Virus record (IMG/VR): IMGVR_UViG_2671181118_000003
DNA length: 4,069 bases
Direction: 5' to 3' (one strand)
Source: a virus
Lineage: Duplodnaviria > Heunggongvirae > Uroviricota > Caudoviricetes
The position numbers were made by a program. Below, one piece after another: positions 1 through 3,000 of the stretch. How positions within the stretch are numbered: position 1 is the stretch's first letter; each line of letters begins with the position of its first letter.

Positions 1-3000
1 GTGGAGAAGTGGGAAAAAGGAAAGATGCGTCTGCTGTGGGATAACAAAAAGCGGCGTAACGAAGCGCTGGACTGCCTGGTGTATGCCTACGCGGCATTAC
101 GTGTGTCCGTGCAACGCTGGCAGCTTGATCTGGCTGTACTGGCAAAATCCCGGGAAGAAGAGACGACCCGGCCAACCCTGAAAGAACTGGCAGCGAAGCT
201 GTCCGGAGGAGTGAATGGTTACAGTCGCTGAACTGCAGGCGCTGCGTCAGGCGCGCCTTGATTTATTAACCGGTAAACGGGTGGTGTCTGTCCAGAAAGA
301 TGGTCGCAGAATTGAATATACGGCGGCTTCTCTGGATGAGCTTAACCGGGCGATCAATGATGCGGAGTCGGTATCAGCGGTAACGTGAATGCGAATTCCG
401 GGACGCTCAACAACGTCACGATTAACGAGAACTGTCGGGTTCTGGGAAAACTGTCCGCGAACCAGATTGAAGGCGATCTCGTTAAAACAGTGGGCAAAGC
501 TTTCCCCCGGGATTCCCGTGCACCGGAGCGGTGGCCATCAGGGACCATTACCGTCAGGGTTTATGACGATCAGCCGTTTGACCGGCAAATTGTTATTCCG
601 GCGGTGGCATTCAGCGGCGCTAAACATGAGAGAGAGCATACTGATATTTACTCCTCATGCCGTCTGATAGTGCGGAAAAACGGTGCTGAAATTTATAACC
701 GTACCGCGCTGGATAATACGCTGATTTACAGTGGCGTTATTGATATGCCTGCCGGTCACGGTCACATGACGCTGGAGTTTTCGGTGTCAGCATGGCTGGT
801 AAATAACTGGTATCCCACAGCAAGTATCAGCGATCTGCTGGTTGTGGTGATGAAAAAATCCACAGCAGGTATCAGTATCAGCTGAATTTTATAACCCAGA
901 ACGGGCGTCAGAAATGACGCCTTTTTTATTGCAGAAAAGCGAGAGGTAATTATGCGTAAACTTTATGCCGCCATTTTGTCCGCAGCCATTTGTCTGACCG
1001 TATCCGGTGCGCCTGCATGGGCGTCTGAGCAGCAGGCCACGCTGAGCGCGGGGTATCTTCATGCCCGGACGAACGCTCCCGGTAGCGATAATCTTAACGG
1101 GATTAACGTGAAATACCGTTATGAATTCACGGACACGCTGGGGCTGGTGACGTCATTCAGCTATGCAGGAGACAGGAATCGCCAGATTACCCGTTACAGC
1201 GATACCCGCTGGCATGAAGATTCCGTGCGTAACCGCTGGTTCAGCGTAATGGCGGGGCCGTCTGTGCGCGTGAATGAATGGTTCAGCGCGTATGCGATGG
1301 CGGGAGTGGCTTACAGCCGTGTGTCGACTTTCTCCGGGGATTATCTTCGCGTAACTGACAACAAGGGGAAAACGCACGATGTGCTGACCGGAAGTGATGA
1401 CGGTCGCCACAGCAACACGTCTCTGGCGTGGGGGGCTGGCGTGCAGTTTAACCCGACCGAATCCGTGGCCATTGATATTGCTTATGAAGGCTCCGGCAGT
1501 GGCGACTGGCGCACTGACGGGTTCATCGTGGGTGTTGGCTATAAATTCTGATTAGCCAGGTAACACAGTGTTATGACAGCCCGCCGATTCAGGCGGGCTT
1601 TTTTGTGGGGTGAATATGGCAGTAAAGATTTCAGGTGTGCTGAAAGACGGCACAGGAAAACCGGTAGAGAACTGCACCATTCAACTGAAAGCCAGACGGA
1701 CCAGCAGCACGGTGGTGGTGAACACGGTGGCCTCTGAAAATCCGGATGAAGCCGGTCGTTACAGCATGGACGTTGAGTACGGTCAGTACAGCGTCATTCT
1801 GTTGGTGGAAGGATTCCCGCCGTCACATGCCGGGACCATCACCGTGTATGAAGATTCTCAACCCGGTACGCTGAATGATTTTCTCGGTGCCATGTCGGAG
1901 GATGACGTCCGGCCGGAGGCACTGCGTCGTTTTGAACTGATGGTGGAAGAAGCGGCGCGTCACGCTGAGGAGGCGAAGAAGAATGCCGGAGAGGCGGAGA
2001 CGTCCGCGAGGAATGCCGGCATATCAGCCAGTCAGGCGGAAGCGAGCGCGGCAAATGCTGACACTTCAGCAGGGGAGGCATCGGAGTCAGCCCGGCAGGC
2101 GGCAGAAAGTGCAGCCGCTGCAAAGAAGTCAGAGGAAGCGTCCTCGTCCTCGGCCTCTGAGGCCGCTCAAAAAGCCAGTGAGTCATTACAAAGTGCAGCA
2201 GATGCTGAGTTGTCAAAAAAGACGGCAGAAAGTGCAGCCGGTAATGCAGCCAGGGATGCAACGACCGCAACAGAAAAAGCCCGGGAGTCAGCAGAAAGCG
2301 CACAGTCAGCGGAACAAAGCAGGATAGCGGCGGAAGAAGCCGTAAACCGAATCCCGACCGTGGTGGGGCCTCCCGGGCCAAAGGGGGAACAGGGGCCCGC
2401 GGGTCCTCAGGGGCCGAAGGGAGATAAAGGAGAGCGTGGCGACACCGGCCCGGCAGGGGCAACCGGTGAACGGGGACCGGCAGGTGATGCTGGTCCGGCA
2501 GGCCCGCAGGGGCCGAAAGGTGACATGGGAGAGCGGGGAGAGACCGGTCTGACGGGAAATGCAGGTCCACAGGGTCCAAAGGGAGATACCGGTGCGGCAG
2601 GCCCGGCAGGCCCACAGGGACCGAAAGGAGAAACAGGTGCGGCTGGCCCGGTGGGGGCAACCGGACCTCAGGGACCGAAGGGCGACCCGGGGGAGACACA
2701 AATACGGTTCCGTCTGGGGCCGGGAAACATTATTGAGACAAACAGCAATGGCTGGTTCCCGGATACAGATGGCGCACTCATCACCGGACTGACCTTTCTT
2801 GACCCCAAAGATGCCACACGGGTTCAGGGGTTTTTTCAGCATTTGCAGGTCAGGTTTGGTGACGGGCCGTGGCAGGATGTCAAGGGGCTGGATGAAGTGG
2901 GCAGTGATACAGGCAGAACAGGAGAATGACATGAATATACTAAAAAAACTTATGCAGCGTCTGTGCGGTTGCGGAAAGCATGATGGCCGTGAACACGGGC

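Follow-up and report, generated by a model that had tools for sequence, protein, structure and literature searches.

Collagen-like side tail fibres of the EPclA type (ECs2717 and Z6027 of E. coli O157:H7) were described by Ghosh et al. (2012, PMC3368898), who had already reported this class of protein together with its triple helix, its recurring motif and the variable length of its collagen domain. Table 2 of that study gives most of the copies in O157:H7 strains EDL933 and Sakai as proteins of 437 aa with the order PfN-PCoil-Col-PfC, in which PCoil occupies 116 aa and Col 111 aa (37 triplets). Col lengths of 63, 78, 81, 111, 114 and 144 aa, differing by multiples of three, were reported together with a repeated GP(Q/P)-GPK-G(D/E) pattern, and PCoil lengths were stated to follow a heptad-multiple rule (PMC3368898). 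Recombinant EPclA forms a trimer with a genuine collagen triple helix according to analytical ultracentrifugation, size-exclusion chromatography with multi-angle laser light scattering, circular dichroism and electron microscopy. Its circular dichroism spectrum is of the collagen type, and the melting transition, at 42 °C, is sharp; both PCoil and PfC trimerise, the coiled-coil trimerisation having been established experimentally, and the dumbbell-shaped molecule has a collagen stalk of about 30 nm, which fits 111 x 0.29 nm (PMC3368898). Here we analysed a stretch of 4,069 nt of the IMG/VR virus record IMGVR_UViG_2671181118_000003 (hereafter the window), part of a lambdoid prophage of the E. 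coli/Shigella type, which carries an intact stf gene for a side tail fibre of this type.

The EPclB-type fibre of the short-tailed Shiga toxin (Stx) phages (Z1483; phi24B gp61, 645 aa) resembles the window Stf in having PfN, PCoil, collagen and PfC, but differs in its two collagen domains (157 and 114 aa) split by a Pf2 repeat and in its podovirus tail (PMC3368898). Cryo-electron microscopy of such a fibre revealed a flexible collagen-like shaft with a small C-terminal globular domain (bioRxiv 10.64898/2026.04.10.717836). Beyond phages, the number of Gly-X-Y triplets also varies by strain in BclA of B. anthracis and C. difficile, Scl1 and Scl2 of S. pyogenes and Lcl of Legionella, and replication slippage or unequal recombination is the usual explanation of length polymorphism in BclA-like collagen-like proteins (PMC13188886). 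These are proteins of cell and spore surfaces rather than virion fibres, unrelated to the window Stf outside the collagen repeat, and their repeats are often arranged in tandem more perfectly than those of the window tract. Lambda Stf shares with the window Stf a homologous N-terminal domain (PF08400), a gene position 3' of J and lom and the role of a trimeric side fibre. The lambda protein differs in its C-terminal receptor-binding part, has a long rod rich in Ala and Ser and, to our knowledge, contains neither a collagen tract nor a PfC domain; its gene is followed by tfa, whereas the window stf is followed by a stand-alone open reading frame (ORF) for a PfC domain.

Alignment of the window Stf with the 437-aa copy of E. 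coli O157:H7 EDL933 revealed 96% identity over 437 aa without gaps. The protein contains PfN, a PCoil poor in Leu, Val and Ile, one uninterrupted Gly-X-Y domain, which begins at residue 251 just as that of EPclA does, and PfC, and its gene lies in the lambdoid tail-fibre position, after the J C-terminus (385-885) and lom (952-1551). The GPQ-GPK-G(D/E) motif is present and type III effector genes lie downstream, as described for EPclA. Nothing essential distinguishes the two; the window copy carries a few substitutions (e.g. GDM for GDR in triplet 18) and is located in a prophage remnant without the genes between gpW and the end of J. Residues 1-93 matched the solved chain of a 'Tail fiber protein' (9e7m, E=2e-51). 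PfN is presumed to attach the fibre to the tail, while PfC is a putative receptor-binding end and, by analogy with the PfC of EPclA, a likely trimerisation module. We are highly confident that the tract serves as the collagen triple-helical shaft in a side tail fibre of EPclA type from a lambdoid prophage of E. coli, and that its length alleles arose by rare misalignment between repeats. The trimer, the triple helix and the length of about 30 nm are supported for the window Stf because the published experiments were performed on a near-identical protein, and they agree with the shaft of a trimeric fibre proposed in an earlier sequence-only reading of the window. The triplets would form a rod linking the tail-attached N-domain to the distal PfC knob.

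Translation of positions 2366-2701 in the stf frame gave 37 Gly-X-Y triplets without interruption, followed by Q. The sequence-only reading had assigned a perfect run of 36 triplets ending at 2692; the absence of interruptions stands, while the count is 37 and the end 2698, as the last triplet, GET, had been missed. The GPQGPKG(D/E) unit, for which at least four imperfect repeats of about 24 nt had been claimed, is present five times, with 24-nt cores that are 71-88% identical to one another. A repeat search placed the five units in register as 33-nt copies of 76-79% identity with spacings of 99, 63, 45 and 54 nt, all multiples of 9; the units are interspersed and not head-to-tail. Tandem Repeats Finder, whose use on the tract had been suggested, identified one substantial array (45 nt x 2, 84% identity) and two tiny 9-nt rows (2564-2583 and 2595-2613). 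The coordinates of these and all other features are given in Table 1.

Table 1. Features of the window, with strand and supporting evidence.
Feature	Position	Strand	Evidence or remark
Large terminase gene, 3' end	1-231		
gpW, first ~52 codons	215-~370		Fused directly to J remainder
Tail-tip gene J, last ~165 codons	385-885		
lom	952-1551		
stf, EPclA-type side tail fibre gene, intact, 437 aa	1616-2929	+	ORF, ATG at 1616, stop at 2929; PF08400, PF01391 and PF06820
PfN, prophage tail fibre N-terminal domain, aa 1-133	1616-2014	+	PF08400, E=6.3e-69
PCoil, low-complexity Ala/Ser/Glu-rich stretch, aa 134-250	2015-2365	+	Sequence; very few L, V, I
Perfect 18-nt direct repeat CGGCAGAAAGTGCAGCCG in PCoil, left copy	2100-2117	+	Repeat search; L005 crossover
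18-nt direct repeat CGGCAGAAAGTGCAGCCG, right copy, 123 nt downstream	2223-2240	+	Repeat search; L005 crossover
Collagen-like tract, 37 uninterrupted Gly-X-Y triplets, 111 aa, aa 251-361	2366-2698	+	Translation; Pfam Collagen PF01391, E=3.5e-18
R1, GPQGPKGD	2402-2425	+	Crossover site of 19-, 14- and 8-triplet alleles
R2, GPQGPKGD	2501-2524	+	Crossover in one 25-triplet allele and in another 19-triplet allele
Imperfect array of two tandem 45-nt units (84% identity), encodes AGPQGPKG(D/E)TGAAGP	2561-2651	+	Tandem Repeats Finder
R3, GPQGPKGD	2564-2587	+	Crossover site of 26- and 19-triplet alleles
R4, GPQGPKGE	2609-2632	+	Crossover site of 25- and 14-triplet alleles
R5, GPQGPKGD	2663-2686	+	Crossover site of 26-, 19-, 8- and 4-triplet alleles
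PfC, prophage tail fibre C-terminal domain, aa 363-426	2702-2893	+	PF06820, E=4.9e-35
Stand-alone PfC-domain ORF, 89 aa	2931-3200	+	PF06820, E=1e-34
nleB-family type III effector gene	3377-3970		Matches elsewhere end at 3960-3965, IS1-like sequence from there

The DNA of eight shorter alleles (loci L001-L008) and of two alleles from complete genomes (L010 and L011) was compared with that of the window. Alignment of the tract and 90-nt flanks indicated that L001-L008 and L011 each differ from the window allele by a single deletion, with 94-98% identity and crossover intervals of 2-11 nt. In seven of these nine alleles the crossover lies inside repeat copies (R3 to R5, R1 to R3, R1 to R5, R2 to R4, R2 to R5, R1 to R4, and the GPK of the second triplet to R5), while the other two (L006 and L011, both of 32 triplets) have lost exactly one 45-nt unit. 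The junction of L002 is chimeric in the alignment, GGTCCTCAGGG in the spelling of R1 being followed by TCCAAAGGGAGATACC in the spelling of R3. In L010 (42 triplets) the additional 45 nt are an exact copy of the preceding 45-nt unit. The unit is thus found in one (L006, L011), two (window) or three (L010) copies, and therefore both loss and gain occur. The remainder of the gene and the downstream ORF of these loci are 94-98% identical to those of the window. The change of shaft length in whole triplets through the repeats, which had been put forward in the sequence-only reading, is borne out by clean single deletions with the crossover mostly in GPQGPKG copies.

Draft assemblies with short contigs are the source of many homologues, and it could be argued that the length differences are assembly artefacts in which repeats were collapsed or expanded by short-read assembly. 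We consider this very improbable since the repeat units are imperfect, 45 nt or shorter, and thus shorter than sequencing reads. Moreover, the 32- and 42-triplet alleles are located in complete genomes, the 19-, 37- and 15-triplet alleles are carried on contigs of 4.7 to 5.7 Mb, and Col domains of 81 and 111 aa both occur within the finished Sakai genome (Ghosh 2012, PMC3368898).

A large protein collection contained 6516 homologues, and triplets were counted in 120 listed ones, to which the following counts apply. Between the conserved flanks VNRIPTVV and QIRFRLGP, EPclA-type alleles have 4, 5, 8, 14, 15, 16, 19, 20, 21, 25, 26, 32, 36 or 37 triplets, while the EPclD-type relatives, with another C-terminus and mostly from Shigella, have 9 and 27-38. 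The tracts thus range from 4 to 38 triplets, all uninterrupted, and one complete genome (L010, above) extends the series to 42. A single fixed triplet number combined with no DNA periodicity, named beforehand as the outcome that would speak against length variation through the repeats, was clearly not what the homologues displayed.

The alleles written out resemble a deletion series of the 37-triplet allele. R1 runs directly into the segment usually found after R3 (19 triplets), R4 (14) or R5 (8), R2 into that after R4 (25) or R5 (19), and R3 into that after R5 (26); overall, seven of the ten possible R-pair deletions were observed. Junction homology of at least 7 aa was found in 47% of the 38 distinct shorter alleles and in 4.7% of all 703 possible in-register deletions, a comparison that is descriptive and not a test statistic, as distinct alleles are not independent events. 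The first of these figures is conservative, because alleles with a polymorphic first crossover column are under-scored (P0057 and P0046 score 0 though their crossovers are in R copies).

Four listed proteins (P0094, P0109, P0111 and P0115) exit the Gly-X-Y frame within or just past the tract (e.g. GPP GPK GNR GPR followed by VLRGRR) and are without PfC; the probable cause is frameshifting within G/C runs of the tract. One further record, P0091, a 486-aa fibre of the Stf family on a 3.5-Mb contig, is labelled 'collagen-like surface-anchored protein SclE [Streptococcus pneumoniae]' and is probably mislabelled or contaminated.

The breakpoints and the automatic preservation of the frame would both be explained by misalignment between in-frame repeats. 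The in-frame recurrence of GPQGPKG(D/E) leaves stretches of 24-33 nt with 71-88% DNA similarity and exact cores of 5-11 nt, and rare misalignment between them would drop or add whole blocks of triplets. Such misalignment may take the form of replication slippage or of unequal exchange at short homologies, within one copy or between the approximately 10 copies of a genome, and its outcome across prophages of E. coli, Shigella and E. albertii would be the series of alleles that extends from 4 triplets to 42 or more. In E. coli, exact matches of 5-11 nt are below the minimum of about 25 nt for efficient RecA-dependent exchange and are typical of RecA-independent slipped misalignment in replication or of short-homology exchange. 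Because the matches are too short for efficient RecA exchange, slippage would be favoured as the origin of each length class, and homologous recombination between co-resident copies may then spread and reshuffle the classes. The tract, the domains, the alleles and their breakpoints in repeats are seen directly in the sequences; the molecular mechanism of misalignment and its rate are what we infer.

Several observations weigh against this explanation or limit it. The 24-nt cores have common exact words of just 5-11 nt and no exact repeat in the tract exceeds 11 nt, which makes them poor recombination substrates. The third-codon identity of the five copies was 0.414, while 0.433 +/- 0.060 was expected (P=0.63) when the same peptide was randomly re-encoded with the codon usage of the tract itself. 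There is a genuine DNA periodicity, yet it does not exceed what the recurring peptide motif demands. Approximately half of the distinct shorter alleles break at very short homologies (GPKG, GERG, GPAG, GP) and not at the full GPQGPKG, and the non-independence of distinct alleles noted above also counts here. The direction of the events, deletion from 37 triplets or expansion to 37, is presumed in all cases except L010. Part of the variation, that of the frame-shifted alleles, is plain decay in defective prophages, and any effect of shaft length on phage behaviour or adsorption is hypothetical. Finally, with repeats this weak the events must be rare, and therefore no fast switch resembling phase variation is expected. 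Perfect or near-perfect head-to-tail repeats, by which a hypermutable contingency locus would be recognised, were not found in the tract, and the data argue for a slow repeat-mediated indel polymorphism, not a hypermutable switch. The earlier proposal that the repeats are substrates for slippage or recombination is supported by the breakpoints, most of which fall in repeats. Given how short and imperfect the units are, however, slippage is not expected to be frequent. A recent DNA duplication as the origin of the five GPQGPKG units was considered and rejected, given that their synonymous positions are at chance similarity.

The gene itself is widespread. At about 97% identity, over its full length and with the downstream ORF, 135 phage records contained it, Stx1a- and Stx2a-converting phages among them. 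It also occurred in 718 of the 5426 complete E. coli genomes; among these 718 the median was 10 places per genome. With so many co-resident copies, the length classes might have arisen only a few times long ago and now be spread mainly by homologous recombination or gene conversion between prophage copies, and not by recurrent slippage. We regard this as a serious possibility, though one to which we would give somewhat less than an even chance. The flanks, 94-98% identical, are good exchange substrates, and the 37-triplet tract sequence is combined with N-parts of different lengths, starting at residue 188, 210 or 251, as well as with different C-terminal variants, GPMS being among those found after the tract. 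Recombination between prophages has also been invoked for domain shuffling in these fibres (Ghosh 2012, PMC3368898). Nevertheless, each length class still requires an originating indel, and the indels map to repeats. At least 15 distinct event types were recognised, among them the two possible products of 19 triplets and three different ones of 26, and the perfect 45-nt triplication in L010 looks recent. An exchange of old classes complements repeat misalignment as the source of the length alleles and does not exclude it.

Lambdoid phages with EPclA-type fibres transfer genes for Shiga toxin and type III effectors from one E. coli strain to another, and any change in adsorption could affect the spread of virulence genes. 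Shaft length might be adaptively tuned, the repeats acting as a contingency-like module that matches the reach of the fibre to O-antigen or capsule, but we judge this to be improbable. The wide range of 4 to 42 triplets, which a rise of 0.29 nm per residue converts to about 3 to 36 nm, and the uninterrupted state of all tracts would suit such tuning, for which a precedent is available in B. anthracis BclA, where the length of the collagen-like region sets that of the filament (Sylvestre 2003, as cited in PMC13188886). However, preservation of the frame follows automatically from in-frame repeats and hence does not point to selection. The repeats, which are imperfect and share exact cores of at most 11 nt, are unlike those of true contingency loci, and many carriers, the window included, are defective prophages. 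An extension of this idea, that the five GPQGPKG units and the 45-nt unit are a selected length cassette which, by repeated and independent gain and loss, tunes the reach to the thickness of O-antigen or capsule, with defective copies serving as an allele reservoir for co-resident inducible Stx phages, appears to us equally improbable.

With respect to what was already described, the word 'slippage' is absent from Ghosh 2012 (PMC3368898), and an incomplete literature search retrieved neither a published breakpoint map for EPcl fibres nor a paper on slippage in phage collagen-like Gly-X-Y tracts. The small and modest addition made here is a nucleotide-level map, in which most length alleles are single repeat-to-repeat deletions or changes in copy number of the 45-nt unit. 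A further modest one is that the DNA repeats are only as alike as the peptide repeat forces them to be.

The PCoil also varies in length. L005 lacks exactly 123 nt of it, with the crossover in a perfect 18-nt direct repeat, and a tract start at residue 210 rather than 251 was found in 13 of the 97 listed homologues with an intact N-terminus. This loss of 41 aa is not a multiple of seven, contrary to the heptad-multiple rule of Ghosh 2012. The PCoil of L006 is shorter as well, and a single deletion fits it poorly (354/669) and does not account for it.

Analysis of the remainder of the window revealed that positions 1-373 are 100% identical to the terminase-gpW DNA of several genomes (O157:H7), while from 369-372 onward the window matches other strains at up to 99.9% across the J end, lom, stf and nleB. 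The gpW/J junction lies at about 369-377; all head and tail genes between gpW and the end of J are therefore deleted, and the prophage is defective. The intact stf copy cannot be mounted on a virion made by this element alone, because these genes have been lost. The deletion junction had no exact match in the one-genome-per-species contigs nor in any complete E. coli genome, and none of the latter covered more than 89% of the window.

At 903-922, just past J, and at 1578-1599, just past lom, there are strong hairpins of terminator type, each with a T run behind it; the second sits 17 nt 5' of the stf start codon. Because of this second hairpin, stf expression would need read-through by antiterminated late transcription or a promoter of its own, and no sigma-70-like promoter was found in 850-3400. 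Two long ORFs on the minus strand (1839-2699, 286 aa; 2306-3091, 261 aa) overlap the tract. They were rejected as genes, every domain match being on the plus strand; frames without stops are an expected by-product of periodic coding with a high G/C content (70.6% GC).

The product of the ORF at 2931-3200 is 33% identical to residues 363-426 of Stf, that is, to its own PfC. An 89-aa PF06820 gene was found 3' of stf in 10 of 11 related loci (L001-L007 and L009-L011), while the copy in L008 is cut by the contig end. The position of this ORF is the place of tfa in lambda, and an assembly helper, a co-trimerising cap or a spare cassette are candidate roles. Some loci (L002, H13) carry a further PfC-domain ORF.

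The NleB/SseK-family effector gene (PF24688, profile positions 1-187 of 317) is broken off at about 3965; the matches to all intact homologues end at 3960-3965, and the last approximately 100 nt of the window match an IS1B-family element site inside nleB of strain ML35. The effector gene is therefore disrupted by an insertion of IS1. In L001-L011 the gene past the pair of stf and the PfC-domain ORF varies by locus, being nleB, nleB2, nleG, nleH, nleA or a gene for a Peptidase_M91 protein. Lambdoid prophages carry exchangeable type III effector cargo beside their tail fibre genes, and the variation among these loci fits this.

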